This document shows positions 5,674-38,654 of a stretch of 64,000 nt of DNA, piece by piece. The position numbers and the translations under genes were made by a program. Under the pieces are notes generated by a model. It saw nothing but the letters and a program-made list of their open reading frames with translations. It ran no database searches and was not told the DNA's origin. Position 1 is the first letter of the stretch; each line of letters begins with the position of its first letter. This stretch comes from Myxococcota bacterium (GTDB lineage: Bacteria; Myxococcota_A; UBA9160; UBA6930). The stretch is taken from assembly GCA_965223705.1 (NCBI GenBank), contig OZ245015.1, forward strand, positions 576,001 through 640,000, read 5' to 3'.

Positions 5674-5709
5674 AACCCGAAGTGTAGTGTATTCACTACG
5701 TATTGGTCG

Positions 5710-5907
5710 CTATCGGGCGGAGGCGCATTCGGCCGCCCAACGATCCTTGAACATCTCCATGAAAAGCGCGGAGGGTCCCTCTCCAGCGATCATCGAGAAG
5801 TGTCCGCTGCCAGCGAACTCCGTCCCGCAGGACGCGCATTCGGCATCGAATTCGGAAACGGTGGCGAGGCAGGACAAGCAGAGGCGGTCTTCGTGTTGCT
5901 GGTTCAT
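5710..5907 (-). CDS. Small zinc-ribbon hypothetical protein (65 aa)
   Basis: CLSC...CASC; AAGGAG RBS before ATG 5907; preceded by ECF-type promoter motif. Confidence 0.6.
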   Translation of the reverse strand: MNQQHEDRLCLSCLATVSEFDAECASCGTEFAGSGHFSMIAGEGPSALFMEMFKDRWAAECASAR

Positions 5908-5930
5908 GTCGAACTCCTTGTTTGTGAAGG

Positions 5931-5958
5931 AGTCGATCTCGAGCTGTTTTCGGATCAC
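5931..5958 (-). promoter_or_regulatory. ECF-type promoter GTGATCC-N16-CGACT
   Basis: Minus strand GTGATCC gaaaacagctcgagat CGACT. Confidence 0.75.
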
Positions 5959-5988
5959 CCGCCCGGCCATCAAAAAAAACTGCGCAAG

Positions 5989-6016
5989 GTGATCCGGTTC
6001 GGGTGCCGCGGCGACT
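5989..6016 (+). promoter_or_regulatory. ECF-type promoter GTGATCC-N16-CGACT (divergent partner)
   Basis: GTGATCC ggttcgggtgccgcgg CGACT, A-tract upstream. Confidence 0.75.
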
Positions 6017-6287
6017 TCTCAGCAGATCGTGCGTTGGATGTACCCACCCGGAACAGCAACACACAAAGAGCAGCCGGTACGGCGCATCGCTCGATCGAAA
6101 CGGCGCCGGCCCCCTAGGGTCGGCGCCGCTCCGTCGTTCCGGAGACGGAACGGCGGGCGGAGCTCGCGGCAGGGTGTCGCGCGCTCGAGCCCACGGCGTG
6201 CATGGGGACGGCAGCCCCGCGCTACCCTTGGGTCACCCGGTGCCTGATGCGGGGACGGGTGCCACCCACAAAGCAAGGAGGGTGAGC

Positions 6288-6695
6288 ATGCCCAATTCAC
6301 GAACAACCTTTGACTGGAAGAACCGAGTCTCGGTGCGCGCGACGCGTGCGCGGCTACAAGCCGCGCTATTGGCTGCCGGCGTCGCGTGCGCGATCGGGCC
6401 ATGGCAGGAGGCCTACGCCGGCATCATCGTCGGAGAGGAGAAGACGCAGAGTCTTCCCCTGGGCGCTGTCGTACCCGATTCGAGCACGGTGGGGGTGGTA
6501 TTTCCGCCCTCGCATTATCGGTTTCCCGGCTATGCCGGGTACGGCTATGGCTACGGCTATCCGTACGGATCGTTTGGAGCTTTTGGCTACTACGGCCGGG
6601 AGTACCTCCACTTCAATCCGGACCGAGCCTTCCGCCGCCATCTTCGCGCCGACCAAGTCGGGAGCATGCGCGAACTGCGGCGCGGGAGGCGCTAG
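6288..6695 (+). CDS. Exported Gly/Tyr-rich hypothetical protein
   Basis: AGGAGG RBS, signal-peptide-like segment ending AYA, low-complexity GYAGYGYGYGYPYG tract. Confidence 0.6.
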   Translation: MPNSRTTFDWKNRVSVRATRARLQAALLAAGVACAIGPWQEAYAGIIVGEEKTQSLPLGAVVPDSSTVGVVFPPSHYRFPGYAGYGYGYGYPYGSFGAFGYYGREYLHFNPDRAFRRHLRADQVGSMRELRRGRR

Positions 6696-6765
6696 AGCTT
6701 AGAGCTCGCCGGGGCGGGGGTGAACCCGCCCCGGTTTCTCTTTTCGGGAAGTCTTGCACGGGGAT

Positions 6766-6897
6766 CGAGGTTTGGCCGTGGCCAGTGGGGGCACCGTGCT
6801 CAAACATCCTCGCGCCGATGCGGCAACGAGGTCGCCTCGCGTGCCTCGGCGGCGCTGCGGAACTGCGCGCGGTACCCCCACTGGCCACGGCCTCGCG
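6766..6897. repeat. ~130-bp structured dispersed repeat, copy 1 (REP/MITE-like or structured RNA)
   Basis: Long terminal stem GGCCGTGGCCAGTGGGGGCACCG / CGGTACCCCCACTGGCCACGGCC; second copy at 22970-23100. Confidence 0.8.
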
Positions 6898-6942
6898 ACG
6901 CCTAGCTAGACCGCCTCCCTTGACCCCGTCTGCAGAAGATTT

Positions 6943-9480
6943 CTAGCCGGCGGGTATCACCGCTGGGACGAAGAAGAAGTCGCCGGACTCGTGGCCCGCG
7001 AATCGGATGGGGGAATACTGGGGTAGCTGCTCGATGGGCGCTTCGTAGGTCACGCGCGCCGAGACTTCCTGGAAGACGCGCTGCGCTTCGAGGATCACGT
7101 CGTTGCTCTCGAGAACTTCGATCAACGCGCGAGCGAAGATCGAGTGCGCGCCGCCCCCGGCATCGAGAACCGGAGCGAGTCCGCCCGAAGTCAGCGCCGT
7201 TCGGGAGCGCTTCGCGGCCATGGTCTCGATCCACTTCACGCGCGCCTGCTCGCTCATCCCCGCTTCCAATCGGGCGAGCGATGAGCGCGTGAGCGCACCG
7301 GAGTAGCACGAGTCTGCGATCACGAGTACGTGGCGCGCGCTCATCGAATTCAACATGTCCGTCAGGGCCACGTTCGAGATCCAGTTCGCCGTGCTGTCGG
7401 CTTCGGCATCGATCGGGAGCCAATGGCCGCGCATGTTCGTCTTGTCGAGCTCGCCGTGACCCGCGTAGTAGATGAGAAGGTTGTCGTCCTCTGTCAGCTC
7501 GCGACGCAGATTGTTGAGTGCGGAAAGCGTCTGGTAGCGATCCGCGTCGTAGATCGTGGTGACCTTGAAGCCGTACTTGTCGCGCAGCAGACCCGAGACC
7601 ACCTTGGCGTCGTTGCGCGCGGTGTCGAGGGTCGGCAGCGACCGATACGCATTGTTCCCGATGACGAGCGCGTGGTAGTTGCCGAAGTTGATCGGCGGAA
7701 GCTTCGGTCGATCGGGTGCGGCGGCTACCGCCGGCGGTTCAATGGTGCGGACGCCGCTGGCCTGCACCAGGAAGTTCCGCGAGGCGCGTTTGCCGAGTTC
7801 ATCGATCGCGACGATGCGGACATCCGTGCCGTTCTCTCCCACCGGGAGCTCGCGTTCGAAGATGCCGTGCGCCGTCACTTCGATCGCCTTGTCATTGAGT
7901 GTCACGGAATACAAACCCGCGGGCGCTTCCACGCGTCCCACGACCCGTTGCACGTCGGAGGTCGCCATAAATACGGGTCGGATGCCACGCGTCATGCGAA
8001 GGGGGGGCTCGATGATCTGGATCGACGGCCCGGCGATCTCTTCGCCTTCGCCGCTCGCCGGTTTCGCCAGTTGTGCGACTTCGACCTTGCGGGCTTCCGC
8101 CTGATCCCGGAGTCGCTTGATCTCTTGGTCGAGGGCCGCGAGTTCTGCGCTCTTCGCTTCGAGCGCCGCCTCGCGCTCGGCGACGCGTTGTTCACGGGCT
8201 GTCACGGCTTCCCCGCGATCGCCCATCGCCTCCTCTGCGGCCTCGAACTCCGCTTCGAGCCGGGCGAGGTTCGCTTCGCGCTCCGCGAGCTCCCGCCGTT
8301 GCGCCTCGCGGGCCCGGTCGAGCTCAGCGCGCTGCGCGCCGAGCTCAGCGCGCTCCGACTCGAGTGTCGCGGCGGAAGCTGCCAGCGCTTCGCGTTCCGA
8401 ACCGAGCTTGTGTCGCTCCGCGGCGAGCGCTTCGCTCGCGGCGGCATTGGCCTCGCCTGTGCGCTCGCTTTCGCCGAGAGCGCGCTCTCGACGATCGAGC
8501 TCCTCGGCGCGAGCCGCAAGCCGAGCGCGCTCCTGCGACACGGCGTCGTCCCGCGCGCCGAGCTCCGCTTCGCGTCGGTCGAGTTCGCTCTGCCGCACGG
8601 ACGTGTCGTCGTTGGCTTCCCGTTCGAAAGCTTGAACCGCGGCGCGCTCCTCGGTCAGGCGGCGCTCTCGCTCTGCGATATCGCGTTGCTGCTCGGCGAG
8701 CTCGCGCTTGCGCGCTTCGAGCTCTGCGCGCTCCACGGCGAGTGCGTCTCGTTCGCGTGCCGCTGCGGCCTCATCATTCGAGAGCCGAGCGCGCGATTGC
8801 GACAGCTCCCCCTCGAGACGACTGATCTCCGAGCGCATTTCCGTGCGATCGCGCTCGCTCTCGGCGAGTTCTGCGCGAAGACTCGCGAGCTGCGTCGTCT
8901 CCCCCGGCGCCGAAACGAACGCGACGTCGGTGCCTTCGAGACCCGAGGCTCGGCGGTACCACGACACTGCGGTCTCCATGTCGGCGGGTACGCCGAGTCC
9001 GCGTTCGTAGAGCTGGCCGAGATTGACCTGCGCCGCGGCGTGGCCCTGCTCAGCAGATTTCCGGTACCAGGTCGCGGCGGCTTTGTAATCGGGTGCCGTG
9101 CCGAGCCCGCGCTCGTAGATCTCGCCGACGTAGTTCTGGGCGACGGGGTCGCCGCTCTCCGCGGACTGCTGCCAAACGCGCAGTGCCGTGCGGTAGTCCG
9201 CCCGGTCGTAACTCACGTATTCGCCGCCGCGGATCTCGCAGTCGAGGCCCGTGGTCTTCACGGGCTTTCGGGGGGCTAGGTAGGTGACCTTGCGCCCCAT
9301 CTTGCGGACCCGCGCGGGCAGGAGACAATCGACGACGAGGAGGTCGTCGGGGTCCTGCACGGCGGCCACGGGGTTCGGCGCGGCATGGGCCTGGGGTAAA
9401 CCTGCGATGAGAACAAGCAGCAGCAACGCGAGCGCGCGGCGCAGGACGGTGGCGTCCCGGCCTAGGGGTGCGGCAAGCAT
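6943..9480 (-). CDS. Exported peptidase C14 (caspase-like) with Sel1 repeats, long coiled coil and Ig-like domain
   Basis: Signal peptide (..PQAHA), Sel1 repeats (AQNYVGEIYERGLG, AQVNLGQLYERGLG), E/R/A-rich coiled coil, ALVIGNNAY, YYAGHG and ADSCYSG dyad; GGAGG RBS before ATG 9480. Confidence 0.88.
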   Translation of the reverse strand: MLAAPLGRDATVLRRALALLLLVLIAGLPQAHAAPNPVAAVQDPDDLLVVDCLLPARVRKMGRKVTYLAPRKPVKTTGLDCEIRGGEYVSYDRADYRTALRVWQQSAESGDPVAQNYVGEIYERGLGTAPDYKAAATWYRKSAEQGHAAAQVNLGQLYERGLGVPADMETAVSWYRRASGLEGTDVAFVSAPGETTQLASLRAELAESERDRTEMRSEISRLEGELSQSRARLSNDEAAAARERDALAVERAELEARKRELAEQQRDIAERERRLTEERAAVQAFEREANDDTSVRQSELDRREAELGARDDAVSQERARLAARAEELDRRERALGESERTGEANAAASEALAAERHKLGSEREALAASAATLESERAELGAQRAELDRAREAQRRELAEREANLARLEAEFEAAEEAMGDRGEAVTAREQRVAEREAALEAKSAELAALDQEIKRLRDQAEARKVEVAQLAKPASGEGEEIAGPSIQIIEPPLRMTRGIRPVFMATSDVQRVVGRVEAPAGLYSVTLNDKAIEVTAHGIFERELPVGENGTDVRIVAIDELGKRASRNFLVQASGVRTIEPPAVAAAPDRPKLPPINFGNYHALVIGNNAYRSLPTLDTARNDAKVVSGLLRDKYGFKVTTIYDADRYQTLSALNNLRRELTEDDNLLIYYAGHGELDKTNMRGHWLPIDAEADSTANWISNVALTDMLNSMSARHVLVIADSCYSGALTRSSLARLEAGMSEQARVKWIETMAAKRSRTALTSGGLAPVLDAGGGAHSIFARALIEVLESNDVILEAQRVFQEVSARVTYEAPIEQLPQYSPIRFAGHESGDFFFVPAVIPAG

Positions 9481-10303
9481 GGGGAGATCCTCCGCTCGAA
9501 AGGCAAGACTCGGGCTCTCAGCGCTGCTCGGTCTCGCAATTTGGGCCCTGGGTTGTGCCGCGCCGGCGAAGCGTTTCGACGCGACGGCCCGGGACCTCGG
9601 TTTCACACGAGAAGTCGTCCGAGGCACCCGTTTCGATCACATAGTTTACCACCGGCGCCGAAAACCCTCGGAGGGGACGCTCCACATCTACCTCGCGGGC
9701 GACGCCGATCCGAGGCGCGCGACGCGTTGGTTCCCACCGGATCCGACCCCAGGGGGGCTCCCCCTTTTCCTGATGGCCTCGGATCCCGGACCGAGTCTTC
9801 TCCTCGGACGCCCGTGCGCCCACGACGCGACGCGCTGCGACGAGGTCGCGCCCTGGACGAGCGCCCGCTACGGCGAGGCCGTCGTCGAGAGTCTCGGCGC
9901 GGCGATCGATAGCTTGGAGCCCGCGACGGGTGACCGCGGTGTCGTGTTGATCGGTTACAGCGGCGGCGGGACGCTCGCGATGCTCGTGGCGGAGCGGCTC
10001 GCCCAGGTGCGTCGCGTGGTGACGCTGGCGGGCAACCTCGACACGGCGGCCTGGGTCGGCCACCACGGCTTCCCCGGGCTGCCGGATTCACTCAACCCCG
10101 CCGAGCGGCCCCCGCTCTCGGTCCCTCAACTGCACCTCGTCGGCGAAAACGACAAGGTCGTCCCGCCCCATTTGGGGCGAACTCTTTGGGAACGTCAGCC
10201 GAACGCGGAAGTGCGCCGGCTTCCCGGCGTCGATCACACCTGCTGCTGGGAGCGCGTTTGGCCCGCCGTCGCTCGCGAGCTCCGCGAAACACCGGCCCGC
10301 TAG
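9479..10303 (+). CDS. Alpha/beta hydrolase lipoprotein
   Basis: Lipobox ALGC, GYSGGG nucleophile motif, GENDKVVP, DHTCCW. Confidence 0.8.
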   Translation: MGRSSARKARLGLSALLGLAIWALGCAAPAKRFDATARDLGFTREVVRGTRFDHIVYHRRRKPSEGTLHIYLAGDADPRRATRWFPPDPTPGGLPLFLMASDPGPSLLLGRPCAHDATRCDEVAPWTSARYGEAVVESLGAAIDSLEPATGDRGVVLIGYSGGGTLAMLVAERLAQVRRVVTLAGNLDTAAWVGHHGFPGLPDSLNPAERPPLSVPQLHLVGENDKVVPPHLGRTLWERQPNAEVRRLPGVDHTCCWERVWPAVARELRETPAR

Positions 10304-11709
10304 AACTGGTACCGCAGCCCGCCGCTCAGGGTGTAGAGGTCGACGGAGCGGAGTCCCAGCACGGTCTCGAAATCGATGAAAAAGGACAGTCCGCCCGAGA
10401 GCGCTGCGGCGATTCCCGCCGCCACGTTCGCGTAGGTCCGATCCGGCCCGTGGGCGCGGAACGTGAACCCGTTCTGGTTCGGGTCCGCGACGAAGGTCGC
10501 CCTCAAATCACGGCCGTCGTCTCCGTATTCCTGCTCCCACTCGGCCCGGATGTACGGCGTGAGCACGCCGAAGCTCGTCGACAGCGCATACCGAATCGAG
10601 AGACCCACGTCGCTCGTGAGCGAGCGCACCGTTTGATCGTCGAAGTCGAGGCGCAACGCACTGGCGATGCCGGAACCGCTTTCCGTGTAGCCGTCGATGT
10701 CGAGGTGGGTGTAGTTCACGCGAACGTAGGGTTCGATTTCCCAAGCGCCGCGGTTGATCGCGTAACCCGCGCCGACGCTGACCGCGATTTCGTCTCCGTC
10801 CGTATCGCCGGACAAGGTCCCGGTTACCGGCGCTGCGGAAGCCAGCGCGTACGCGATATCGCGGTCGAGGTCGTAATCGATGTCGGCGTAGCTGATCACG
10901 CCGTCGACGTACCAGCGCTCCATCTGATAGCTGGCGTAAGCGGAGAGGTGCAGCGCCTCCTTGTCGAGGTCACCGGCGCTGTCGTCAAAGTCGAACGTCG
11001 ATTCCGAATAACCGATCGAGATACCGGCCGCCGTCGCGTCGGAAAAGCGGTAGTCGACGCCGCCCACGATGCCGTAGGCGTCTTCGATATCGAAGCCCGC
11101 CTCTTCTTCGGTTTGATCGTAGTCGCCCCACGACCCGAGTCCTGTCACCCAGACGCCGATCCGATCGCCCAACAGGCCGCTTACCGGGTCGTCGCCGGCG
11201 GCAAACCGCTCGGCGAAAGCGACTTCGAGATCCTCGCCGCGCAGCGAGTCCCCGTCCGCGTCGCGCAACGTCAGGCCCGCGAGTTGGATGCCGCGGTGTC
11301 CGTCGCGCAACGCGATCAGTCGGCCCTTCATGAGGTCGATGTTCGTCGCGGTGGTTTCCGTCGAGGCGGCGCGCGTCGCCGACAACTCGTCGAAAGCGAC
11401 ATTCGAGTAGCCGATGTTGCGTTCGGCATCGCTCAGGCCGGTGGGATCATTTCCCAGGGTGCCGTCGCCGTCGAAATCGTTGACGACCATTTCGGTGCAC
11501 AGACCGGAGAGTCGCTCCGTTTCATTCGCCGAATTTCGATTCGGCGTCGCTCCGAGAAAAGGGCACACGGAGAAAATGAACTCCTCCCCCTTCTGGGGGA
11601 CGATGGACTGGAGCGAATCGTCGATCGGTGACTGCGCCAGCGCTTGACCGCTGCCGAAGAGCACCATCGAGAGTGCGAACGCAATGAGTAGCTTGGCCTT
11701 GACGTACAT
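10300..11709 (-). CDS. Autotransporter-type outer-membrane beta-barrel with very short passenger
   Basis: Signal peptide, GVWVTGLGSWGD, GGVDYRF, amphipathic beta-strands, C-terminal RYQF. Confidence 0.85.
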   Translation of the reverse strand: MYVKAKLLIAFALSMVLFGSGQALAQSPIDDSLQSIVPQKGEEFIFSVCPFLGATPNRNSANETERLSGLCTEMVVNDFDGDGTLGNDPTGLSDAERNIGYSNVAFDELSATRAASTETTATNIDLMKGRLIALRDGHRGIQLAGLTLRDADGDSLRGEDLEVAFAERFAAGDDPVSGLLGDRIGVWVTGLGSWGDYDQTEEEAGFDIEDAYGIVGGVDYRFSDATAAGISIGYSESTFDFDDSAGDLDKEALHLSAYASYQMERWYVDGVISYADIDYDLDRDIAYALASAAPVTGTLSGDTDGDEIAVSVGAGYAINRGAWEIEPYVRVNYTHLDIDGYTESGSGIASALRLDFDDQTVRSLTSDVGLSIRYALSTSFGVLTPYIRAEWEQEYGDDGRDLRATFVADPNQNGFTFRAHGPDRTYANVAAGIAAALSGGLSFFIDFETVLGLRSVDLYTLSGGLRYQF

Positions 11710-11757
11710 CTCCGGTGATTCCTTCCCTGAATCGAGCCGCAACGGCGGCCCAGTGTA

Positions 11758-13779
11758 CTAAGAACGGGGCATGCTGCGAAGCGGCACGCGATCGATCGCC
11801 CAGCCGGCGGGCCGAGGCGCTGCGGGCCCCGAGCCGATGTGCTCGAGAAGCGATTCGACCCAGCTCGTACTGCGTGTTCGGCGGGCTTCTCCCACGAGCA
11901 CGGTCGGGTCGTCGATCGGGTCCTCGGTCGACAGCAGCACGAGTGTGTCGGTTCCAAAGGGCGGAGCGACTTCGATCCCGGTGCGTCCCAAAGGAACAAG
12001 AGGCGGGGGAACTTCGTCCGCCGATACGGGAACCCGGTTTCCCACATTGCCGGATTCTGCGCGGGGAAAGAGCAGGGCGCGCTCGCCGTACCCGTCGACC
12101 ACGAAAACGTAGACGTAGCGCTGTTCGACGCTGGACGTTTCGACATCGTTTCGGCGCTGCAGCATCAACTCGAAACGGTCGCCTTCGAAGACCACGCCAC
12201 CCGGAATGACGCGGCCCGCCGAGGTGTCCCGCAAGACCAGGCGGTAGGGGAAGGCCGAAGCGTTTTCGGGGGATTCGAGCAGCAGCCAGTTTCGCGCGAC
12301 AGCCAAGCGTCGGGCGTTCTCCGCGAGGAGCGCCGCTGCATTCGGCGCGGTCTCGGGAATTCCGGCCCCACGGGGCGGGAGCCCCGACGCTTCGCCCGTC
12401 CGCCGCTGCCAGTGAAGCTCCGGCGCCGGCCCGGAGTGGTCTGCGGCGAGGACGTAGTGGGCCTGCGCTTCGGAAACGAGCTCGACCCCGGGAACCGATG
12501 GGATCGAGTGGGCGAGCTCTTGGCGAAGCGTCGGCGGAACCAGTGCGGGCAGCGCGACCTGGAGGGCGCCGCCGGTCGGGTGCGCCCAGCGGACCACGCG
12601 AAACAGCGTGCCGGTTCGGACCGCCTCGGGATCTCCGGCAAGAACCCGTGCCGTCGAGCGATTCAAGCCGCTCACCTGTTCGACCTGTATGCGGACGCTG
12701 GTTTCTTCGGAGACGAGCTCGCTACCGCGAAAAATGCCGGCCGCGGTGCCCGCTCGGAGAACCACCGAGTCGCCGTCCGCCGGTCCCAACGCTGCGAAGT
12801 GCCGTCCCGGGCGTGCGGTTGCGGGCGCGGCCCCGAAAAGCGCGCGTTCCCGTCGCTCGAGGGAGCCCGCCAGCACGGGTGTTTGCACGTTGTGCCCGCT
12901 GCCGAGCAGGGCGCGCGTTCGGGCGAAGAGCTTCGACACAGGCTCGTCAGCCGGGGCCTGCCCCAGGGCCTCGAACAGGGCAACGCTGAAGGCCCCGTGG
13001 TATTCGCCGCTCGCGTCGCGGGATTCTCGGGCGAGCTCACCGTCGGAGGTCGCCGCCAAGACGAGCGCACCGCGCTCCTCCGGTGCTCCTCGGGGGTCGA
13101 AGGGCGGCGTCGCGGCTCCCGCCTCGGCTTCGTAGCGGGGGGGAAGCGTCCGCACGTCTTCTACCGCGTGGAAGCTTCGAGTGGCCGAGCCGCTGTGACA
13201 GCTGTCGAGAATCACGACGAGCTCGGCGCCGCGATCGAGGACGTCGTTGAACAAGCTGCGGAGCTCTTTGTCCCGGATGTCCGCGGCGCCGCGATTCGCG
13301 TCGGCCGGCACGATCGTTTCGTCGAGGAGGTCCGCTTCGGTAGACGCCGCGTTCCGCAACTGTGAGCCGTGCCCCGCGAAGTAGAACAAGTTGACGTCGC
13401 CCGGGCCCGAAGCCTCGATCAGATGCTCGCGTATGGCGTTGAGGATGCCGTCGCGGGTGGCTTCGCCGTCGGTCAGTACACGAACGGACTCGCTCGGAAA
13501 CCCAAACCGTCCTTGTAGGATCGCCCGGAGCGCTTCGGCATCGTTCACCGCGCCGCGGAGATCGACCCAACTCGCGGAGGCTTTCGCCCGCCCGCGCGTC
13601 ACAGCGACCGCGCCGGCTTCCGGTCTGTAGCGGTCGATGCCCACCAAGAGCGCGCGTTGTGCGCCGGCGGCAGCGTCGGCGAAGCAACAGATGGCGAGGG
13701 CGGCGAGGAGCCAAAGGGTCGGCCGACGCCGCGCCTTGTGCACAACGTCGGCCGACCGATGGTGGGAGTTTCGGATCAC
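11758..13779 (-). CDS. Exported peptidase C14 (caspase-like) with C-terminal DUF4384-like domain
   Basis: Signal-like N-terminus, RALLVGIDRY, LRGAVNDA, FAGHGS and LDSCHSG dyad; C-terminal GDRFEL...YVYVFVVD..LLFP; exact start uncertain. Confidence 0.85.
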   Translation of the reverse strand: MIRNSHHRSADVVHKARRRPTLWLLAALAICCFADAAAGAQRALLVGIDRYRPEAGAVAVTRGRAKASASWVDLRGAVNDAEALRAILQGRFGFPSESVRVLTDGEATRDGILNAIREHLIEASGPGDVNLFYFAGHGSQLRNAASTEADLLDETIVPADANRGAADIRDKELRSLFNDVLDRGAELVVILDSCHSGSATRSFHAVEDVRTLPPRYEAEAGAATPPFDPRGAPEERGALVLAATSDGELARESRDASGEYHGAFSVALFEALGQAPADEPVSKLFARTRALLGSGHNVQTPVLAGSLERRERALFGAAPATARPGRHFAALGPADGDSVVLRAGTAAGIFRGSELVSEETSVRIQVEQVSGLNRSTARVLAGDPEAVRTGTLFRVVRWAHPTGGALQVALPALVPPTLRQELAHSIPSVPGVELVSEAQAHYVLAADHSGPAPELHWQRRTGEASGLPPRGAGIPETAPNAAALLAENARRLAVARNWLLLESPENASAFPYRLVLRDTSAGRVIPGGVVFEGDRFELMLQRRNDVETSSVEQRYVYVFVVDGYGERALLFPRAESGNVGNRVPVSADEVPPPLVPLGRTGIEVAPPFGTDTLVLLSTEDPIDDPTVLVGEARRTRSTSWVESLLEHIGSGPAAPRPAGWAIDRVPLRSMPRS

Positions 13780-14318
13780 TAGTTCGCCTTGCGGAACTGT
13801 ACGCGTCGGTTCTTCGATGCCGTGGGCTTCACCTCGGGCAGCGGCGTGTCTTCGCCGCGACCCACGGTGACGAGCCGAGCCGGGTCGATCTGGTGCGACT
13901 TCACCAGGTAGTTCCGGACGGACGCCGCGCGAAGCTCGGAAAGTCGCTGGTTGTAGGTCCGCTCGCCGATCGCATCGGTGTGGCCCTCGATCACGAGTTT
14001 CTCGTTCTTCGCCTGCTCGGTGCGCAGGGCCTGGCCGAGCTGATCGAGGAAGGGCTGGGATTCCGCGAGGATCTCCGCCGAATCAAAACCGAAGCGCACC
14101 TGGAACCCGATGGTCTGGGGCGGCGTGGGCGCAGGCGCGTCCTTCATCACGATCGACCGCGTCTTGTAGGCCGGCGCTGCGGCGGGGAACAGGCGGTCCG
14201 CCAGTTCCTGGGCCGACGGGGTCGAGCCCTCGATCATGTGTACCTCTTCGGCGGAGGCGGTATTCGCCGCGAGGATCAGCGCGGCACCTGTCAGCAAGAC
14301 TCGAAGCAATCCAAACAT
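13779..14318 (-). CDS. OmpA-family peptidoglycan-binding protein
   Basis: FGFDSA, IEGHTDAIG, YNQRLSELRAASV, NRRVQF; signal peptide. Confidence 0.92.
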   Translation of the reverse strand: MFGLLRVLLTGAALILAANTASAEEVHMIEGSTPSAQELADRLFPAAAPAYKTRSIVMKDAPAPTPPQTIGFQVRFGFDSAEILAESQPFLDQLGQALRTEQAKNEKLVIEGHTDAIGERTYNQRLSELRAASVRNYLVKSHQIDPARLVTVGRGEDTPLPEVKPTASKNRRVQFRKAN

Positions 14319-14348
14319 GTTCAATTCTCCTTGGGCCAGGGGCCTTGG

Positions 14349-15875
14349 TTATTGCGAGACGTCGATCCCGAGGCGGCCCACCGTGAGCCCCTTCGGATCG
14401 ATCGCTTCAAAATGTCCCAACAATTCGTTCAAGTTCGCGACGGGAAGCGGCTGTAGGTCGCCGCCCTTGAGCTCGGACGGGAGATGCAGTCCGAGCTCGC
14501 GGTCGGAAGCGACGCACGCGATCTCTTCCCGCGTGTTCGGTCGTTCGAACAAGATGGTGAACGGAGCATCGCGAGACGGAACCTCGACGAAGCGCTTGCC
14601 GCCCACGTAGGAGTTCGGCTGGAAGCGGTTCGGAAAGATCCGCGCCACGTGACCGCCCGCATCGGCGTAGTAGCAGTAGACGTACGCGCTGTCCGAAGTC
14701 TCCACGGTCATGCGGAACTCTTCGCCGACTTTGTAGGTCGGGTTCGCGCCCCGCTCGTTCAGCATCTTGAGCGTCAACGGTTCGCGCGCCGCAAGCTTCT
14801 CAGGAGTCGGCACCGAGCCAGTGTCTTCGAGGCTCGGCGGACCGGCGGCGACCTGGTAGTCCGCGCCGAGAAGCGTCCGATAGAGGTCGAAACCCACGCG
14901 ACCCGTCGGCACGAGGTTATTCTCGGTTTCGAACCGTGCGATGGCTTTGCGGGTGGCGCCGTCGAGCGTTCCGGCGCTTTCTCCCTCGAGATAGCCGCCG
15001 GCGACGAGTGCGCGCTGCACGAAGAGCAAGCGCTGCTTGTCCGACATGCTGGCGTACCAGTCGCGAATCTCCGCCAACACCTCGGGGTGCGTGGACTCGA
15101 TCTGCAAGCACTCCCAGTACGGCACGCGGGCGAGCTTGCCGAGGAGCTCGATCGCGCCGAGCTCGACCAACGTACGAACGGCTTGGTGCATGCCTTCGCT
15201 GCGGTCGATATCGATGCTGAAGGAAATGCCGACTTTTTCGATCAACCCGGCGAGATCCGCGCCCTTGCCCTTGCGGCGCACGGCCAAGCGGTTGCTCGCG
15301 GTGAGCCCGGGAACGACGCGCTTCGAGGGGTACTGAACGATGTTCATGTCGAGTGCCAACACCGAGGCGGTATTCGTTGCCGCCGCGGACGCGTCACCCG
15401 AGAGATCGTCGTTGTCGTAGGAAAGGCCGCCGCCGATCGAGTTGTCTTCGACGTTTCGATCGAGCTGCGTGATCGCGCCGCGAATATAGAAGTGCGGCAG
15501 GTTCTGATTGACCGGAAGCTCGGCCTGTTTCCCGATCGTGTCGAGATAGATGATCTGCTCCTGGTACTGCAGATCCAGATAGGAGAAGGCCTGGCTTCGC
15601 ATGGTCATCCGGGAAACGGCCGACATCAGCATGTCGTCGGTACCGGCGGCGACCTTGCCCGTCGCGTCCGGGATGCCGATCGACGTGATGCGGAAACCGC
15701 GCACGCCGTTTGCCACGAACATCTGGTCCATGCACGTCAGCGACTCGCTGAAGCTCGTCATCGACCGGACCGCCTGGGTCTTCGGTACGGACGTGATGTA
15801 GGGATCTTCGGGGATGGTCTTACAGGCGACCAGCCCGAGACAAAGCGAAAGAACGAGTAGAGCTTTAGCAGCCAT
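14349..15875 (-). CDS. Lipoprotein: CsgG/HfaB-like domain + peptidoglycan-binding domain + DUF4384-like domain
   Basis: Lipobox LVAC; IPDATGK, FYIRGAITQLD, VLALDMNIV, AVRTLVELGAIELLGK resemble CsgG/HfaB fold; FVQRAL..GYL..G.LD..TRKAI..F is PG_binding_1-like; YKVGEEF..YVYCYY..IFPN is DUF4384-like. Confidence 0.72.
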   Translation of the reverse strand: MAAKALLVLSLCLGLVACKTIPEDPYITSVPKTQAVRSMTSFSESLTCMDQMFVANGVRGFRITSIGIPDATGKVAAGTDDMLMSAVSRMTMRSQAFSYLDLQYQEQIIYLDTIGKQAELPVNQNLPHFYIRGAITQLDRNVEDNSIGGGLSYDNDDLSGDASAAATNTASVLALDMNIVQYPSKRVVPGLTASNRLAVRRKGKGADLAGLIEKVGISFSIDIDRSEGMHQAVRTLVELGAIELLGKLARVPYWECLQIESTHPEVLAEIRDWYASMSDKQRLLFVQRALVAGGYLEGESAGTLDGATRKAIARFETENNLVPTGRVGFDLYRTLLGADYQVAAGPPSLEDTGSVPTPEKLAAREPLTLKMLNERGANPTYKVGEEFRMTVETSDSAYVYCYYADAGGHVARIFPNRFQPNSYVGGKRFVEVPSRDAPFTILFERPNTREEIACVASDRELGLHLPSELKGGDLQPLPVANLNELLGHFEAIDPKGLTVGRLGIDVSQ

Positions 15876-16200
15876 CGCGGTTGAATCCTCGGTTGATGTT
15901 GATGACGTCGCCGTCGATGACAACTTCGATCTCGTCGGGCACGTCGTTCTTGCCAGGACCGGTGAAGACGCTGCCGATCGACAGGCTACCGGTGCAGTTC
16001 ACAATATCGCCTCGGTGATAGAATTTTCCGGGCTCCTGCTCCTCGGGAACGATCGTTTCGCCCGCGACGCTGGCTTTGTGCATCTTGCGGAGATGCGAAG
16101 CCTTCACGCGGGGCTTGTTGAAATCGTTCGCCAACGCGGTGTGCGCCGGCACGAAGGAGAGGCCGAGTGCGAGTAGCAACAGGGTGTTCGTGATCTTCAT
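15865..16200 (-). CDS. Small secreted protein with Cys pair (candidate accessory subunit)
   Basis: Signal peptide ending TALA, NCTGSLSIGSV...IEVVIDGDVININ..C; overlaps start of CsgG-like gene; own ECF promoter. Confidence 0.75.
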   Translation of the reverse strand: MKITNTLLLLALGLSFVPAHTALANDFNKPRVKASHLRKMHKASVAGETIVPEEQEPGKFYHRGDIVNCTGSLSIGSVFTGPGKNDVPDEIEVVIDGDVININRGFNRDGC

Positions 16201-16242
16201 GGTGTAGCTCCCTCGGTCCTTATTGTGGACCAACTGGTTGAG

Positions 16243-16270
16243 AGTCGCGCCTTCTCTTGTCCTGGATCAC
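16243..16270 (-). promoter_or_regulatory. ECF-type promoter for the CsgG-like/OmpA/caspase operon
   Basis: GTGATCC aggacaagagaaggcg CGACT. Confidence 0.75.
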
Positions 16271-16518
16271 CGAGAAGTCGGGAAATCGCTCGTATCCTCG
16301 GGAACCTGCTGGACTTCGGTGTCCGCGCGATCGCCCAAGGGGCAGAGCTCGGTCGGCGAGTCGATCGGCAAGCTCGGTACGGCTTCGAAAGACACGGTTT
16401 CGCAGTACGTGATCTCGATGGGATCGTCGACGTCCGCATCGCTGAGCGCAAACGCCGGTACGGTCGTCGTGAAGTCGAGGAAGAAGAGGGCGGTCAGCAG
16501 AAGTCGTTGTCGTTTCAT
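16267..16518 (-). CDS. Small acidic secreted hypothetical protein (83 aa)
   Basis: Signal-like N-terminus ending AFA, D/E/P-rich, two Cys; own ECF promoter. Confidence 0.55.
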   Translation of the reverse strand: MKRQRLLLTALFFLDFTTTVPAFALSDADVDDPIEITYCETVSFEAVPSLPIDSPTELCPLGDRADTEVQQVPEDTSDFPTSR

Positions 16519-16547
16519 CGGATGCCTCGGGTGCGTTGTTGATGAGG

Positions 16548-16575
16548 AGTCGACGGCGGGGGCTTCTCGGATCAC
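16548..16575 (-). promoter_or_regulatory. ECF-type promoter
   Basis: GTGATCC gagaagcccccgccgt CGACT. Confidence 0.75.
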
Positions 16576-16583
16576 CGAACGCG

Positions 16584-16630
16584 AAGAAAAACGGGGTGCG
16601 GCGCCGACTCTGCGGGGGAGTCGACGCCGC
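16584..16630 (-). terminator. Intrinsic terminator after paralog A
   Basis: GCGGCGTCGACTC/GAGTCGGCGCCGC stem followed shortly by T-tract on minus strand. Confidence 0.65.
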
Positions 16631-16669
16631 GGGGGAAGCCACGGCGTGGCTTCCAGGGCTCGTGTTTAT

Positions 16670-16996
16670 TTACTGCTGGGGTTCGCAGTCGGTCGCGGCA
16701 CCGAGCGATCCGAAGGTCGCGCACGCGTTCGACTCGTAGGATTTCGCCATGGTGTCGACGTACTTGGCGGTGCCCTCGAGGACCGGATCCCAACCGATGC
16801 GCGTGTAGTCGTGCATGGTCGCGACGCTCGTGTACGCGCTCGACTTCGTGCCCGACGCGACGGTATCGACGTTTTCACCCACCGCGAGGGTGATGAGGAG
16901 GTCGTGGACCTCGGTGGTGAAATCGCCAGCGACGCTGGCCTGGGCGAGGGAGAGAGTCGCGATCGCCGCAATCGCGACGGAGAACAAGCGGTTCAT
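16670..16996 (-). CDS. Secreted two-repeat beta-rich protein, paralog A (108 aa)
   Basis: AAGGAG RBS, signal peptide, DFTTEV...SVATMHD...ACATFGSLG...C; homologous to four neighbours. Confidence 0.85.
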   Translation of the reverse strand: MNRLFSVAIAAIATLSLAQASVAGDFTTEVHDLLITLAVGENVDTVASGTKSSAYTSVATMHDYTRIGWDPVLEGTAKYVDTMAKSYESNACATFGSLGAATDCEPQQ

Positions 16997-17046
16997 GGTG
17001 GTGCTCCTTGTGGTGTGGGTCCCGCTATTTCCGGGACTTGAAGAGG

Positions 17047-17074
17047 AGTCGCGCCAGGGCGTGTCACGGATCAC
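17047..17074 (-). promoter_or_regulatory. ECF-type promoter (paralog A)
   Basis: GTGATCC gtgacacgccctggcg CGACT. Confidence 0.78.
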
Positions 17075-17082
17075 CGATCCCG

Positions 17083-17116
17083 AAAAGAAAAAGCGCCGGC
17101 TCTTTCGAGCCGGCGC
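17083..17116 (-). terminator. Intrinsic terminator after paralog B
   Basis: GCGCCGGCTC-GAAA-GAGCCGGCGC + TTTTTCTTTT. Confidence 0.8.
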
Positions 17117-17141
17117 CAGAGGGGCAGGGGGACGTGTTGCC

Positions 17142-17465
17142 TTAGCGGGGTTCGCAGAAAGTCGGGTTGCCGACGGAACCGAAGGACGCGCAGGCGTGCG
17201 CGTTGTAGCCGCTGGCCTTGGTCTCGATGTAGCGCGCGTCGCCCTTGAGGTTCGTCTTGTAGTTGATGAGCGTGTCGTCGTGCACTGTCGCGACACTCGT
17301 CGTGGCGCTCGAGTAGTCACCCGTGGCGAGCGTGTCGACCTGGTAGCCGTAGGCGTCGGTGTCGAGCTGCGCGCGGATCTCGGTGGTGAAGGGGTTCGCG
17401 AAGCTCACGCTCGCGATGGTCAGGGCGGCAAAGCCGGCGATGGCGGAAACGAAGAGGCGGTTCAT
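17142..17465 (-). CDS. Secreted two-repeat beta-rich protein, paralog B (107 aa)
   Basis: Signal peptide, NPFTTEI...SVATVHD...ACASFGSVG..C. Confidence 0.88.
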   Translation of the reverse strand: MNRLFVSAIAGFAALTIASVSFANPFTTEIRAQLDTDAYGYQVDTLATGDYSSATTSVATVHDDTLINYKTNLKGDARYIETKASGYNAHACASFGSVGNPTFCEPR

Positions 17466-17519
17466 GATGTTCTAGCTCCTTGGTGGTGTTTGTGGGTCGC
17501 TTCCTGCGACTTGCCTAGG

Positions 17520-17547
17520 AGTCGGGCCAGGAGGGGTCTCAGATCAC
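17520..17547 (-). promoter_or_regulatory. ECF-type promoter (paralog B)
   Basis: GTGATCT gagacccctcctggcc CGACT (one mismatch). Confidence 0.72.
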
Positions 17548-17554
17548 CTGCGGC

Positions 17555-17589
17555 AAAAAAAAAGCGCCGGCTCACGAATGAGCCGGCGC
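17555..17589 (-). terminator. Intrinsic terminator after paralog C
   Basis: GCGCCGGCTC stem + T9. Confidence 0.8.
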
Positions 17590-17614
17590 CGTCGTGTCGT
17601 GTCGGCTGCGAAGG

Positions 17615-17965
17615 TTACTCCTGGACGAGCATCTTGCTGCGCTGGCCGGGCTCGCAGTGGGTCGGGTTGCCGACGGAACCGAAGGACGCGCAGGCGTGCG
17701 AGTCGTAGCCGCTGGCCCGGGTCTCGATCCAGCGAGCGTCGCCCTTGAGGTTCGTCTTGTAGTTGATGAGCGTGAAATCGTGCACGGTCGCGACGCTCGT
17801 CGTGGCGCTCGAGTGGCGGCCCGAAGCGACGGTATCGACCTGGTAGCCGTAGGCGTCGGTGTCGAGTTGGCCGCGGACCTCGGTGGTGAAGGGGTTCGCG
17901 AAGCTCACGCTCGCGATGGACAGGGCGGCAAAGCCGGCGATGGCGGAAACGAAGAGGCGGTTCAT
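17615..17965 (-). CDS. Secreted two-repeat beta-rich protein, paralog C (116 aa)
   Basis: Nearly identical to paralog B, with short C-terminal extension. Confidence 0.88.
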   Translation of the reverse strand: MNRLFVSAIAGFAALSIASVSFANPFTTEVRGQLDTDAYGYQVDTVASGRHSSATTSVATVHDFTLINYKTNLKGDARWIETRASGYDSHACASFGSVGNPTHCEPGQRSKMLVQE

Positions 17966-18020
17966 GATGTTCTAGCTCCTTGGTGGTTTTTCGCGGGTCG
18001 CTCCTTACGACCCGTGAAGA

Positions 18021-18048
18021 GGTCGTTCGAGGAGCCGCCCTGGATCAT
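18021..18048 (-). promoter_or_regulatory. ECF-type promoter (paralog C)
   Basis: ATGATCC agggcggctcctcgaa CGACC (two mismatches). Confidence 0.65.
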
Positions 18049-18055
18049 CGACAGC

Positions 18056-18090
18056 AAAAAAAAGCGCCGGCTCGAGGTGAGCCGGCGCTT
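18056..18090 (-). terminator. Intrinsic terminator after paralog D
   Basis: AAGCGCCGGCTC/GAGCCGGCGCTT stem + T-tract. Confidence 0.8.
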
Positions 18091-18113
18091 CGGAGGCGGG
18101 GAAAACCGTCGGG

Positions 18114-18440
18114 TTAGTGCTTCGGGCGGCAGTACGTCGGGGCACCGACCGAGCCGAAGGTCGCGCAGGCGTGGGCGTTGTTGCCGCTGGCCTCGGTGCG
18201 GATGTATTCCGCCTTGCCCTTCAGGTTCGTCTTGTACTGGATGAGCGTGTAGTCGTGCACGGTCGCGACGCTCGTCATCGCGCTCGAGTTGTCGCCCGTG
18301 GCGAGGGTGTCGACGTTCTTGCCGTAAGCATCGGTGTCGAGCTGAGCCCGGACCTCGGTGGTGAAGTCATTGGCGAAGCTCACGTTGGCGATGGACAGGG
18401 CGGCGAAGCCGGCGATTGCGATAGCGAAGAAGCGGTTCAT
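18114..18440 (-). CDS. Secreted two-repeat beta-rich protein, paralog D (108 aa)
   Basis: Signal peptide, NDFTTEV...SVATVHD...ACATFGSVG..C. Confidence 0.88.
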   Translation of the reverse strand: MNRFFAIAIAGFAALSIANVSFANDFTTEVRAQLDTDAYGKNVDTLATGDNSSAMTSVATVHDYTLIQYKTNLKGKAEYIRTEASGNNAHACATFGSVGAPTYCRPKH

Positions 18441-18505
18441 TGGATGGTTCCTTTGGTGGGATCGTTTTCAAACTCTCTGTCGCGCCCCTGCGCGACTTGC
18501 TGAGG

Positions 18506-18533
18506 AGTCGTTCGCCGGCCGCTTCCGGATCAC
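18506..18533 (-). promoter_or_regulatory. ECF-type promoter (paralog D)
   Basis: GTGATCC ggaagcggccggcgaa CGACT. Confidence 0.78.
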
Positions 18534-18573
18534 CCGAGCTCATTTTTTTCAGCGCGATCGCGATTTTTTCCAG

Positions 18574-18614
18574 AAAAGAAAAAGGCGCCGGCTCGAGGGG
18601 AGGAGCCGGCGCCT
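18574..18614 (-). terminator. Intrinsic terminator after paralog E
   Basis: AGGCGCCGGCTC/GAGCCGGCGCCT stem + TTTTCTTTT. Confidence 0.8.
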
Positions 18615-18639
18615 CGGGAGAGGAGGAGAGCTTTCGGGG

Positions 18640-18975
18640 TTAGTTCTTCTCCTCGCAGTGGGTCGCGGGGCCGATCGACGCGACGCTCGTGCAGGCGCGC
18701 GATCCACTGTGGCTGGCCTCGGTCCAGACGTCGCGTACGGAGACGTCGATCTTGACCGGACCCTCGATCTTCGTGTCGTCGTGGATCGACGCGACGCTCG
18801 AGTAGGCGACGGCGTTGGCGGCCGTGGCCTTCGTCGTAACGTCCCGGACTTCCACGGTAATTTCGACCCGATCCTTGATCACGGTCGAGAAGTCACCGGC
18901 GAAGCTCGCGGTGGCGAACGACATCGACACGATGCTTAGGGTGATAGCGGCGATGAGGGCGAAGGCGCGGAGCAT
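18640..18975 (-). CDS. Secreted two-repeat beta-rich protein, divergent paralog E (111 aa)
   Basis: AGGAG RBS, signal peptide, clear 37-aa internal repeat (VRDV.T.A....A.SSVASI / VRDV.T.A....ACTSVASI), Cys pair. Confidence 0.85.
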   Translation of the reverse strand: MLRAFALIAAITLSIVSMSFATASFAGDFSTVIKDRVEITVEVRDVTTKATAANAVAYSSVASIHDDTKIEGPVKIDVSVRDVWTEASHSGSRACTSVASIGPATHCEEKN

Positions 18976-19031
18976 GGCTTTTCTCCTGGCTTGTTGATGT
19001 CGCTGGCCGCGCATCTCGCGGCTCGTTCCGA

Positions 19032-19059
19032 AGTCGCGGGCACTTCCCGTTTGGATCAC
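19032..19059 (-). promoter_or_regulatory. ECF-type promoter (paralog E)
   Basis: GTGATCC aaacgggaagtgcccg CGACT. Confidence 0.78.
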
Positions 19060-19144
19060 CGCGAAGGAAAAAACGATTTATCCCCACGGGGCAGTGCGGT
19101 ACAGTACGATCGAGTCCTCGGTTAGAGAGGGTCGGCGACAAGCG

Positions 19145-20017
19145 ATGGATCGAGAACAGTGGAAGACAGTTCTCAACGCGGCGAGCGACGGCGACGCGCC
19201 CGCCTTGCTTCAGCTGACCCGCCAGGTCAGCCGGCTCCTCGAGGAGTACGGCGCCTACACCGTCCGTAAGGAGTGGGCCGAGGACGTCCAGAAGATCACG
19301 GCAGCGGTTCTCGAGGGATGGGCCGAGGGTGGAACCCTCGCCGCGGACACCCATATCGAAAGCGTCACCAAGAACCGTTTTTGGGGTCAGATTCTCGATC
19401 TGATGACCCAGAACGATATGAAGGCGGGCCAGCTCTTCTTTCCGACCGTTCGCCGTCTACTCGGCAAGTGGGACGGGGCCCGGCGCGCCGAGGCGCAATG
19501 GGACGACATCGTTCAGGAGACCGCGCACCAGCTCTGGGAGAGCTGGATGAAGGGTGGGGTGAAACGCCCCTGGTCGCTGCTGTGCACCATCGCGAAACGC
19601 CGTTATCTCGACAAAATCCGCGCCGAGCGCCACACGGAAGAAATCGAGGATGAAGCTTCTGAGGAGCTGGGTGACAGCCCCGGCGAGCTCTTCACCGAAC
19701 AAGCCCTGGCCGTCCTCGAAGAAGAGGAGCGGCAGGTCATTGTCCAAATGGACATCGAGGGCAGGACGCGCGTCGAAATCGCGGATTCTCTCGGCGTGAC
19801 CGAAGGCCAGGTGCTTTCGACGCGCCGGGCGGGGTTGCGCCGCATCTGGAGATGGCTCGGCCGCGACCTTCCACCGACCTCGCGCGCCGTCTGGGAGGAG
19901 ATGTTCAAAGGCGCGCGGCGAATTCCCCCGGAGGAAGTGGCCGCCAAGCTCAGTATGGAGACCGCCGAGGTCGTCGAGATCCTCGAAGAGGCGCGCGTCC
20001 TCACGGGGCTCGCATGA
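19145..20017 (+). CDS. ECF-type sigma-70 factor with N- and C-terminal extensions
   Basis: Region 2 (WDDIVQET...LCTIAKRRYLDKIR), region 4 (LEEEERQVI..EGRTRVEIADSLGVTEGQV); adjacent anti-sigma. Confidence 0.82.
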   Translation: MDREQWKTVLNAASDGDAPALLQLTRQVSRLLEEYGAYTVRKEWAEDVQKITAAVLEGWAEGGTLAADTHIESVTKNRFWGQILDLMTQNDMKAGQLFFPTVRRLLGKWDGARRAEAQWDDIVQETAHQLWESWMKGGVKRPWSLLCTIAKRRYLDKIRAERHTEEIEDEASEELGDSPGELFTEQALAVLEEEERQVIVQMDIEGRTRVEIADSLGVTEGQVLSTRRAGLRRIWRWLGRDLPPTSRAVWEEMFKGARRIPPEEVAAKLSMETAEVVEILEEARVLTGLA

Positions 20018-20037
20018 GGGAAAAAACTCGCTGTGAA

Positions 20038-20065
20038 GTGATCCGGAACGTCCACTGGCGCGACT
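20038..20065 (+). promoter_or_regulatory. ECF-type promoter for anti-sigma gene
   Basis: GTGATCC ggaacgtccactggcg CGACT, A-tract upstream. Confidence 0.75.
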
Positions 20066-20129
20066 TGGGTCCAGGGGAAGGTGGGTCATCGAACCCGCCG
20101 ACAGGAGCCTCGACGAAAAGGATCGTCCC

Positions 20130-20912: not shown

Positions 20913-21130
20913 TGCACCGTCTTCTCGTCGCCGCGGCGTTTCTCGCGCTGGCGTGCGTCGACGGCGGACGAAGCCCCGAAGCGAGTCTCGACGGTGCGCT
21001 GCACGTGACGTGTCGCGGGGCTGGCACAGCCGTGACGGTGATTGGATCGCGCGCCGCAGACGCAGGGCGCGTCGTCGCCCGGGACGTTCGGACCGACGCC
21101 GGACGCGGCAGCCGCTGCGAAGAGTCCTAG
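20909..21130 (+). CDS. Possible small lipoprotein
   Basis: Lipobox-like LALAC, start coupled to anti-sigma stop. Confidence 0.4.
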   Translation: MMHRLLVAAAFLALACVDGGRSPEASLDGALHVTCRGAGTAVTVIGSRAADAGRVVARDVRTDAGRGSRCEES

Positions 21131-38561: not shown

Positions 38562-38563
38562 TC

Positions 38564-38650
38564 GCGACGGAAGCGCCCGCTGCGGTCCAGACCCGTTGCG
38601 ACGGGAACGCGCGCTGCGGTCCAGACCCGTTGCGATGGGAACGCGCGCTG
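38564..38650. repeat. 34-bp tandem repeat (~2.5 copies) between convergent genes
   Basis: Unit GCGACGGGAACGCGCGCTGCGGTCCAGACCCGTT. Confidence 0.85.
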
Positions 38651-38654
38651 GGCT

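Follow-up and report, generated by a model that had tools for sequence, protein, structure and literature searches.

A probable promoter motif, very likely read by an adjacent, doubled-domain ECF-type sigma factor in a Myxococcota bacterium

The subject of this report is a promoter motif, GTGATCC-N16-CGACT, and the gene for an extracytoplasmic function (ECF)-type sigma factor that lies among its copies. Both are found in a 64,000-nucleotide (nt) stretch, here called the window, of the 4.56 Mb genome (G000) of a Myxococcota bacterium (assembly GCA_965223705.1, contig OZ245015.1, positions 576,001 to 640,000). Judged from sequence, this sigma factor, in which the sigma2 and sigma4 domains are each present in a second, divergent copy, likely reads the motif and transcribes the gene of a presumed anti-sigma factor together with what is likely a curli-like fibre cluster. 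The copies are judged to mark a real regulon, that of an unusual ECF variant over a probably undescribed curli-like cluster. The surface-fibre system itself is likely to have gone undescribed so far.

Such a system is of interest for several reasons. It would provide a complete circuit (sigma factor, promoter, anti-sigma factor and targets) for an ECF that is not autoregulated, a kind whose promoters cannot be found by methods based on upstream motifs (PMC7776599). The doubled build prompts one to ask what role spare sigma domains play. The regulon connects an unnamed family of secreted proteins with a 37-residue repeat to a CsgG-like pore. Finally, an Arg site in the anti-sigma factor is a concrete candidate substrate for bacterial caspases that are exported, few of whose targets are known.

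The motif and its reader

The original prediction listed ten copies of the motif, eight of them exact, and all ten are present at the positions and on the strands it had given (Table 1). The inexact ones are 17520(-), with one mismatch (GTGATCT), and 18021(-), with two (ATGATCC...CGACC). It had seen none elsewhere in the window, overlooking an eleventh copy at 9613(-), with one mismatch, 132 nt ahead of the likely start of a gene for a Sel1-repeat caspase. With one mismatch allowed, 10 matches occur in the window (9613 included, 18021 excluded), compared with a mean of 0.60 and a maximum of 3 in 100 shuffles. The version ending in CGACY matches 12 times, against a shuffle mean of 1.31; its twelfth match, at 56158, is antisense within a coding gene and was taken as chance.

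In the whole genome, the exact motif occurs 11 times with a 16-nt spacer and 0-5 times with each of 13 other spacers (10-23 nt). Three of the 11 copies lie outside the window, two preceding genes and one antisense in a gene. Because two good copies lie this far off, the regulon is mostly local, not strictly so as first proposed. Sites at C1:2273718, C1:451746 and C1:2303505 were rejected or left doubtful, being in coding sequence.

Nine of the 11 window copies end 23-65 nt 5' of a start codon. The exceptions are 9613 and 5989 (271 nt). That every copy points into a downstream gene, as had been claimed, needs correcting for 5989(+), which stands well away from the nearest credible start, with a structured RNA stretch between. 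An A/T-rich tract lies 10-16 nt 5' of the -35 element, and in the array of repeat-protein genes it doubles as the U-tail of the previous terminator. The spacer length of 16 nt is indeed fixed. The spacers were also thought to be unrelated in sequence, which is not wholly so: the five array copies share 2-11 of their 16 bases (mean 5.6).

Another origin can be considered. The motif copies could be a by-product of tandem cassette duplication, or the operator of a regulator other than a sigma factor. Five window copies do stem from cassette duplication and lie within duplicated promoter-gene-terminator units, which weighs against the promoter reading. However, the other six precede unrelated genes, and within the array the spacers have drifted while the motif cores have been kept. 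The motif is also non-palindromic, oriented and set at the distances from start codons given above. Such an origin is considered highly improbable.

The adjacent sigma factor belongs to a family with 36 other members in the protein collection (49-89% identity), of which the titled ones are from Myxococcota or Deltaproteobacteria. Fourteen orthologous loci were compared, ten from metagenomes and four from genomes. In all 14, the start of a motif lies at -4 to +64 nt relative to the stop codon of the sigma gene, before the anti-sigma gene. In seven of them (L027, L028, L031, L035, L036, L038 and L039) the TGA stop of the sigma gene is itself the TGA of the -35 element. Over 131,723 bases (window positions 1-26000 and 13 loci, the near-duplicate L034 being excluded), 45 sites have a 16-nt spacer and at most one has each of nine others (12-21 nt); as the pattern was derived from the window itself, the independent part of this count is that from the other loci.

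Upstream of the sigma gene, nine of the ten loci with sequence there (170-400 nt each) have no site under two mismatches, and the best match in the window has three. The site before the anti-sigma gene is the most conserved of all. On both counts, the negative feedback that had been proposed can still be inferred.

The motif also accompanies the sigma factor across genomes. Among 401 genomes of the phylum, the sigma factor was found in three: G000, G014 and G204. A tighter pattern matches nine times each in G000 and G014, with seven of the nine clustered, and 0-6 times, scattered, in 39 other relatives in which the sigma factor was not found. In G204, 6 of 17 motif matches fall within 8 kb. 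The repeat protein occurs in the same three genomes and in G069. At the G069 locus, genes for the repeat protein, the cap and the CsgG-like protein are present but the motif does not rise above chance, and no sigma factor was found in that genome. Likewise, a plasmid locus of Azospirillum lipoferum has the same module and, in the DNA fetched, no motif. Since the motif clusters with the sigma factor and is missing beside the same targets at these two loci, which lack the sigma factor, it tracks the sigma factor and not the targets. The evidence here is clustering and not genome-wide number, since a looser, 11-base motif occurs at counts that give no guide to whether a genome has the sigma factor.

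The second T of TGATCC is presumably position -32, going by RpoE promoter numbering. Arg228 of the window sigma factor occupies the position of RpoE Phe175 in alignments with SigL and AlgU, and is invariant in 34 of 34 sequences. An Arg at this position goes with -32T (Todor et al., PMC7776599).

Several observations weigh against the assignment. The 14 loci are related, and some are not independent of one another: a site is shared by L030 and L034, L039 and L040 are those of genomes G204 and G014, and L033 has 95% identity with the window across the part that matched. The anti-sigma site of L040 has a 17-nt spacer, and L028 has a one-mismatch site ahead of its sigma gene. The G069 comparison covers just 3.3 kb. 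Two other ECFs of the genome carry an Arg at the Phe175 position. Finally, the looser motif occurs 0-13 times per genome in GC-rich relatives without this sigma factor, so that single distant copies may be chance.

Taken together, it is very likely that the motif is an ECF promoter read by the adjacent 290-residue sigma factor. The original proposal of this reader is supported by the co-location in 14 of 14 loci, the clustering in sigma-bearing genomes and the rule linking Arg with -32T.

The genome encodes 21 sigma2 domains, and another ECF might be the reader, the candidates being those at C1:1894273 and C1:327383. The C1:1894273 sigma factor resembles that of the window in having Arg, Gln and Asp at the positions of Phe175, Lys56 and Asn84. 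Beside the C1:327383 sigma factor is a cupin partner with a weak ChrR-like match (E 4.9e-9, below cut-off), and the -35 element of the motif equals the ECF11 consensus GTGATC. Yet no motif lies near either gene. Of the candidates, the C1:1894273 sigma factor was the one searched for in relatives; it is matched in 10 of 40 that lack a motif cluster, and no copy was found in G014, which bears one. The -10 element is CGAC and not CGTA, and it is the adjacent sigma factor that the motif accompanies at every locus compared. A different ECF is therefore an improbable reader.

The likeness to ECF11 (RpoE-ChrR; for example PSPTO_1043 and R. sphaeroides sigmaE) had been noted in the original prediction, and it holds for the -35 element. 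ECF11 promoters have the GTGATC/CGTA pair, and the group has a ChrR partner and autoregulation (PMC7826278, PMC5507510). The -35 (GTGATC/TGATCC) and the 16-nt spacer are common to both. The rest differs. The window -10 is CGAC(T/C) in all sites, and the neighbouring anti-sigma factor is membrane-bound without a cupin, the genome's only TIGR02451 match being elsewhere, at C1:328051. There is no autoregulatory promoter, the sigma factor has extra sigma2' and sigma4' domains, and the targets are envelope and secreted proteins instead of ECF11's singlet-oxygen genes. Because only the -35 and the spacer are common to both, the window sigma factor is not regarded as ECF11.

The sigma factor and its presumed anti-sigma factor

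In its predicted domains, the window protein is an ECF (group 4) sigma factor, with sigma2 and sigma4, a short linker and no sigma3. Pfam places PF04542 (sigma2) and PF04545/PF08281 (sigma4) in the middle of the protein, separated by a linker of 17 residues with low model confidence. A weak match to PF04539 sits after sigma4, in an extra helix-turn-helix. The best fold matches of the core are ECFs.

Further, divergent copies of both domains lie outside this pair. A profile comparison within the family alignment shows that residues 6-83 are similar to the inner sigma2 (78 columns, E 5.5e-5, probability 66%) and that the C-terminal part is similar to sigma4 (34 columns, E 7.4e-5, probability 62%), with no match in any of three cross-controls. 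A structure model based on the alignment has a predicted local distance difference test (pLDDT) score of 88 and a predicted template modelling (pTM) score of 0.56. It was used instead of a single-sequence model, which was poor (pLDDT 45). Residues 231-290 match helix-turn-helix domains with a modest Z of about 7. A point against the doubling is that sigma2' has no family match of its own and that a fold search, which barely probed it, gave nothing specific for residues 1-77.

The outer copies are conserved, with mean top-residue frequencies of 0.60 and 0.69 against 0.72 and 0.77 for the inner ones. Missing from them, however, are the DD..Q that is invariant in the inner sigma2 and the Ser/Arg residues that serve recognition in the inner sigma4. 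Because the outer copies are without these polymerase- and DNA-binding residues, the inner pair is presumed to be the one that transcribes. The outer copies probably serve anti-sigma binding or inhibition.

No description of an ECF with doubled sigma2 and sigma4 was found in term searches of PMC7826278, of passages of PMC7671368 or of the open-access literature covered, and the group may be classified in the tables of PMC7826278 or the ECF Hub. The part of the PMC7826278 supplement available (157 ECF groups of Casas-Pastor 2021) contains neither a GTGATC/CGAC pair nor a gene context with caspases, Sel1 or CsgG. The window has another sigma70-family gene, of group 2/3 type, at about 38450-39340 (-), with no motif nearby.

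The neighbour of the sigma factor is presumably a zinc-binding anti-sigma (ZAS, class I) factor that binds and inhibits it. Twelve full-length orthologues including that of the window were compared, three others being dropped as truncated. By its predicted topology, the protein has the single helix and outer domain of the ZAS class: all 12 show a 19-residue hydrophobic peak, which in one of them is weak (1.35). HxxxCxxC occurs twice in eight, once in two (including the window) and not at all in two, and PF13490 (zf-HC2) reaches its cut-off in one of five orthologues scanned. All 12 have an invariant Arg, Arg141 in the window, 8-17 residues past the helix and followed by Gly (10) or Ser (2). 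Other facts count against the class assignment or its simplest form. The window protein has a single HxxxCxxC and no Pfam match, and two orthologues have no such motif. Because the number of these motifs varies, doubling of the sigma factor and of the anti-sigma factor is not strictly coupled.

Targets and proposed circuit

Five paralogous genes in the array encode secreted proteins, each behind its own motif, with a strong terminator at four junctions. Three repeat genes are present in G014 and one in G204. The family comprises 125 clusters at 50% identity in a profile search. The best self-repeat is 35-38 residues long in 117 of 124 members (P0011 left out), and the number of repeats ranges from two to four or more. 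Two C-terminal cysteines are found in 92 of 124. Curlin signatures are rare, with QX10Q in 11 and N-x5-Q-x-G in three of 124. The family has no match in Pfam, NCBIfam or PDB sequences, and its best Atlas score is 0.77. Family member P0126 gave no plasmid match. A complex prediction for three mature copies scored 0.35 against a mark of 0.42.

The array is followed by genes for export and envelope functions. The CsgG-like lipoprotein stands beside a small protein that is a candidate nucleator. No CsgE or CsgF match in Pfam or NCBIfam was found among the small neighbours. Both caspases have a p20 domain with an intact His-Cys dyad, which by sequence places them with the orthocaspases of peptidase family C14, and both are probably exported.

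A CsgG/HfaB-like lipoprotein beside small signal-peptide beta-repeat proteins resembles curli and the HfaA/B/D holdfast anchor of Caulobacter. The evidence leans towards the repeat proteins being exported and forming stacked beta-solenoid fibres, either at the CsgG-like pore or through it. This likeness has its weak points. The HfaB match (NF037935, E 3.2e-11, 42.9 bits) is far below the cut-off of 300, and the pore protein has no Pfam CsgG match and no match among PDB sequences. Curli are controlled by CsgD. In the window, the pore is fused to peptidoglycan-binding and DUF4384 domains, and caspases, an OmpA-family protein and a barrel are co-regulated. The repeat is 37 residues long, not about 23, and lacks the N-x5-Q curlin motif (PMC10192328). 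No paper joining DUF4384 and CsgG was found in the open-access literature covered.

The same regulation could instead serve a periplasmic or outer-membrane system for proteolysis and envelope remodelling. The repeat proteins would then be soluble beta-solenoids acting as signals, inhibitors or substrates of the caspases. This would suit a regulon that includes two caspases, an OmpA-family protein, a barrel and a STAS-like protein, and the two C-terminal cysteines could cap a monomer; the lack of a curlin signature and of CsgE/CsgF family matches points the same way. On the other hand, G069 and A. lipoferum keep the repeat gene together with the cap and CsgG-like genes, and the annotation of the A. 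lipoferum stretch includes no caspase gene. Varying repeat number and tandem amplification of separately promoted genes also suggest bulk production. Soluble repeat proteins are thus judged unlikely, and fibres are preferred.

With fibres as the product, the circuit would work as follows. The sigma gene would have a different promoter, and the sigma factor would be kept at the membrane by the ZAS-type anti-sigma factor. An envelope signal would free it, probably through cleavage of the anti-sigma factor at its invariant Arg, immediately outside the membrane helix. The inner sigma2/sigma4 pair would then read the motif and transcribe the subunit array, the export genes and the proteases. Repeat proteins would be exported to form fibres, with tandem cassette duplication raising their dose. 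Freshly made anti-sigma factor would shut the response off.

The protease making the first cut may lie within the regulon. Orthocaspases cut after basic residues (PMC6426788), and a site of the form hydrophobic/Thr-Arg-Ser/Gly occurs in the OmpA linker in five of six homologues and also after the caspase catalytic Cys. For these two reasons, the co-regulated caspases are the best candidates for site-1 proteases cutting the anti-sigma factor at its Arg, a role that remains tentative. Such a cut would add positive feedback. The most elaborate version combines a new doubled-domain ECF class and a double-zinc-finger anti-sigma factor with exported caspases cutting at Arg-Gly in a self-amplifying loop, new anti-sigma factor as brake and fibres made via a wall-anchored CsgG-like pore; it is doubtful that all of this holds.

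The closest working analogue is sigma-BldN/RsbN of Streptomyces, where an ECF drives genes for amyloid chaplins and rodlins and for its own membrane anti-sigma factor (PMC6101532). BldN also has an N-terminal extension (PMC7826278). The analogy is purely functional, since in that Gram-positive system anti-sigma class and subunits are unrelated and there is neither a CsgG-like pore nor doubled domains.

Another comparison can be made with DdvS-DdvA of Myxococcus. The membrane anti-sigma factor DdvA bears a caspase-like CHAT domain. In the window, separate C14 genes within the regulon encode the proteases, and CRISPR/CBASS is not the output. The two systems are alike in that a Myxococcota ECF, a membrane anti-sigma factor and a caspase-fold protein take part in one circuit (PMC11506125).

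Features of the window and outlying sites

Table 1. Motif copies, genes and other features of the window
Feature	Position	Strand	Evidence or remark
290-residue ECF-type sigma factor, sigma2'-sigma2-sigma4-sigma4'	19145..20017	+	Pfam, internal duplications, model, fold matches
260-residue anti-sigma-like membrane protein	20130..20912	+	HxxxCxxC, hydrophobic helix 111-129, Arg141, C-terminal domain
72-residue predicted lipoprotein	20912..21130	+	L040 counterpart: 37% identity, E 8e-5 pairwise, own motif
Secreted two-repeat (37 residues) protein, paralogue 1	18640..18975	-	17/37 residues identical between repeats
Secreted two-repeat protein, paralogue 2	18114..18440	-	
Secreted two-repeat protein, paralogue 3	17615..17965	-	
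Secreted two-repeat protein, paralogue 4	17142..17465	-	
Secreted two-repeat protein, paralogue 5	16670..16996	-	
83-residue acidic protein, signal-like N-terminus, no family	16267..16518	-	
111-residue secreted protein, candidate cap or nucleator	15865..16200	-	precedes CsgG-like gene; homologues in L039, L040, L056
CsgG/HfaB-like lipoprotein fused to PG_binding_1 and DUF4384	14349..15875	-	NF037935; PF01471, PF14326
OmpA-family peptidoglycan-binding protein	13779..14318	-	PF00691 6.2e-22; conserved [T/L]R[S/G]I linker
Caspase-family (C14) protease, DUF4384-like domain	11758..13779	-	PF00656 1.7e-22, PF14326 7e-4; intact dyad
Autotransporter-type beta-barrel, short passenger	10300..11709	-	PF03797 6.2e-66
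Sel1-repeat, coiled-coil, caspase-family (C14) protease	6943..9480	-	PF00656 1.8e-24, PF08238 3.4e-18; signal-like N-terminus
65-residue CxxC/CxxC zinc-ribbon-like protein	5710..5907	-	homologues E 6.5e-10, 7.5e-9 in L039, L040, each motif-led
Possible structured leader or small RNA	6022..6290	+	269 nt 3' of 5989; folding z -3.34, 0/200 shuffles
135-residue protein, Gly/Tyr-rich tract, no family	6288..6695	+	no homologue in 13 loci scanned
Promoter motif, exact	5931..5958	-	pattern match; forms a divergent pair with 5989; comparable pairs in L039, L040
Promoter motif, exact	5989..6016	+	pattern match
Promoter motif, 1 mismatch	9613..9640	-	matching site before orthologue in L024/L040
Promoter motif, exact	16243..16270	-	heads cap-CsgG-OmpA-caspase-barrel run
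Promoter motif, exact	16548..16575	-	pattern match
Promoter motif, exact	17047..17074	-	just 3' of terminator 17117-17092
Promoter motif, 1 mismatch	17520..17547	-	after terminator 17590-17563
Promoter motif, 2 mismatches	18021..18048	-	after terminator 18091-18061
Promoter motif, exact	18506..18533	-	after terminator 18615-18582
Promoter motif, exact	19032..19059	-	divergent from sigma gene
Promoter motif, exact	20038..20065	+	before anti-sigma gene; most conserved site

The genes at 5.7-6.7 kb had been linked to the system through their motif copies. For the gene at 5.7 kb the link stands, its homologues in two other genomes being motif-led. The target of the 5989(+) copy is less certain, as the structured stretch comes before the gene of the 135-residue protein, which has no homologue in the loci scanned. 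The stretch at 6022-6290 has no Rfam match and only short hairpin-like matches elsewhere, and Rfam gave nothing credible over 5000-22000.

The distant copies at C1:936561 and C1:986124 score as well as window copies. The former (L001 5641-5967 (+)) precedes a gene for a 108-residue STAS-like, anti-anti-sigma-like protein (E 0.062), which could be a further feedback element. The latter (L002 5822-6076 (-)), the top-scoring motif, precedes that of an 84-residue secreted protein of no family. A distant motif in G204, at C34:80859 (L048 about 2600-2860 (-)), stands before a gene for a 51-residue Gly-rich lipoprotein.

In Azospirillum ramasamyi, a CsgG-like gene and a canonical 177-residue ECF share a locus in which there is no motif cluster and no match to the repeat family. 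On the A. ramasamyi plasmid (L049 25362-26598 (-)) are two secreted Asn/Gln-rich proteins of a different repeat family (AGIGNxAxQ), which lie near a CsgG-like gene and a canonical ECF/zf-HC2 pair.

Motif-led genes for alpha/beta-hydrolases (lipase-like) occur in two other genomes, at L040 (18566-19249) and L038 (1182-1916), and none was noticed in the regulon of the window. Window positions 9760-10070 (-), located between the genes for the barrel and the Sel1-caspase, look like the remnant of a small hydrolase gene that is placed alike in L038 and L024.

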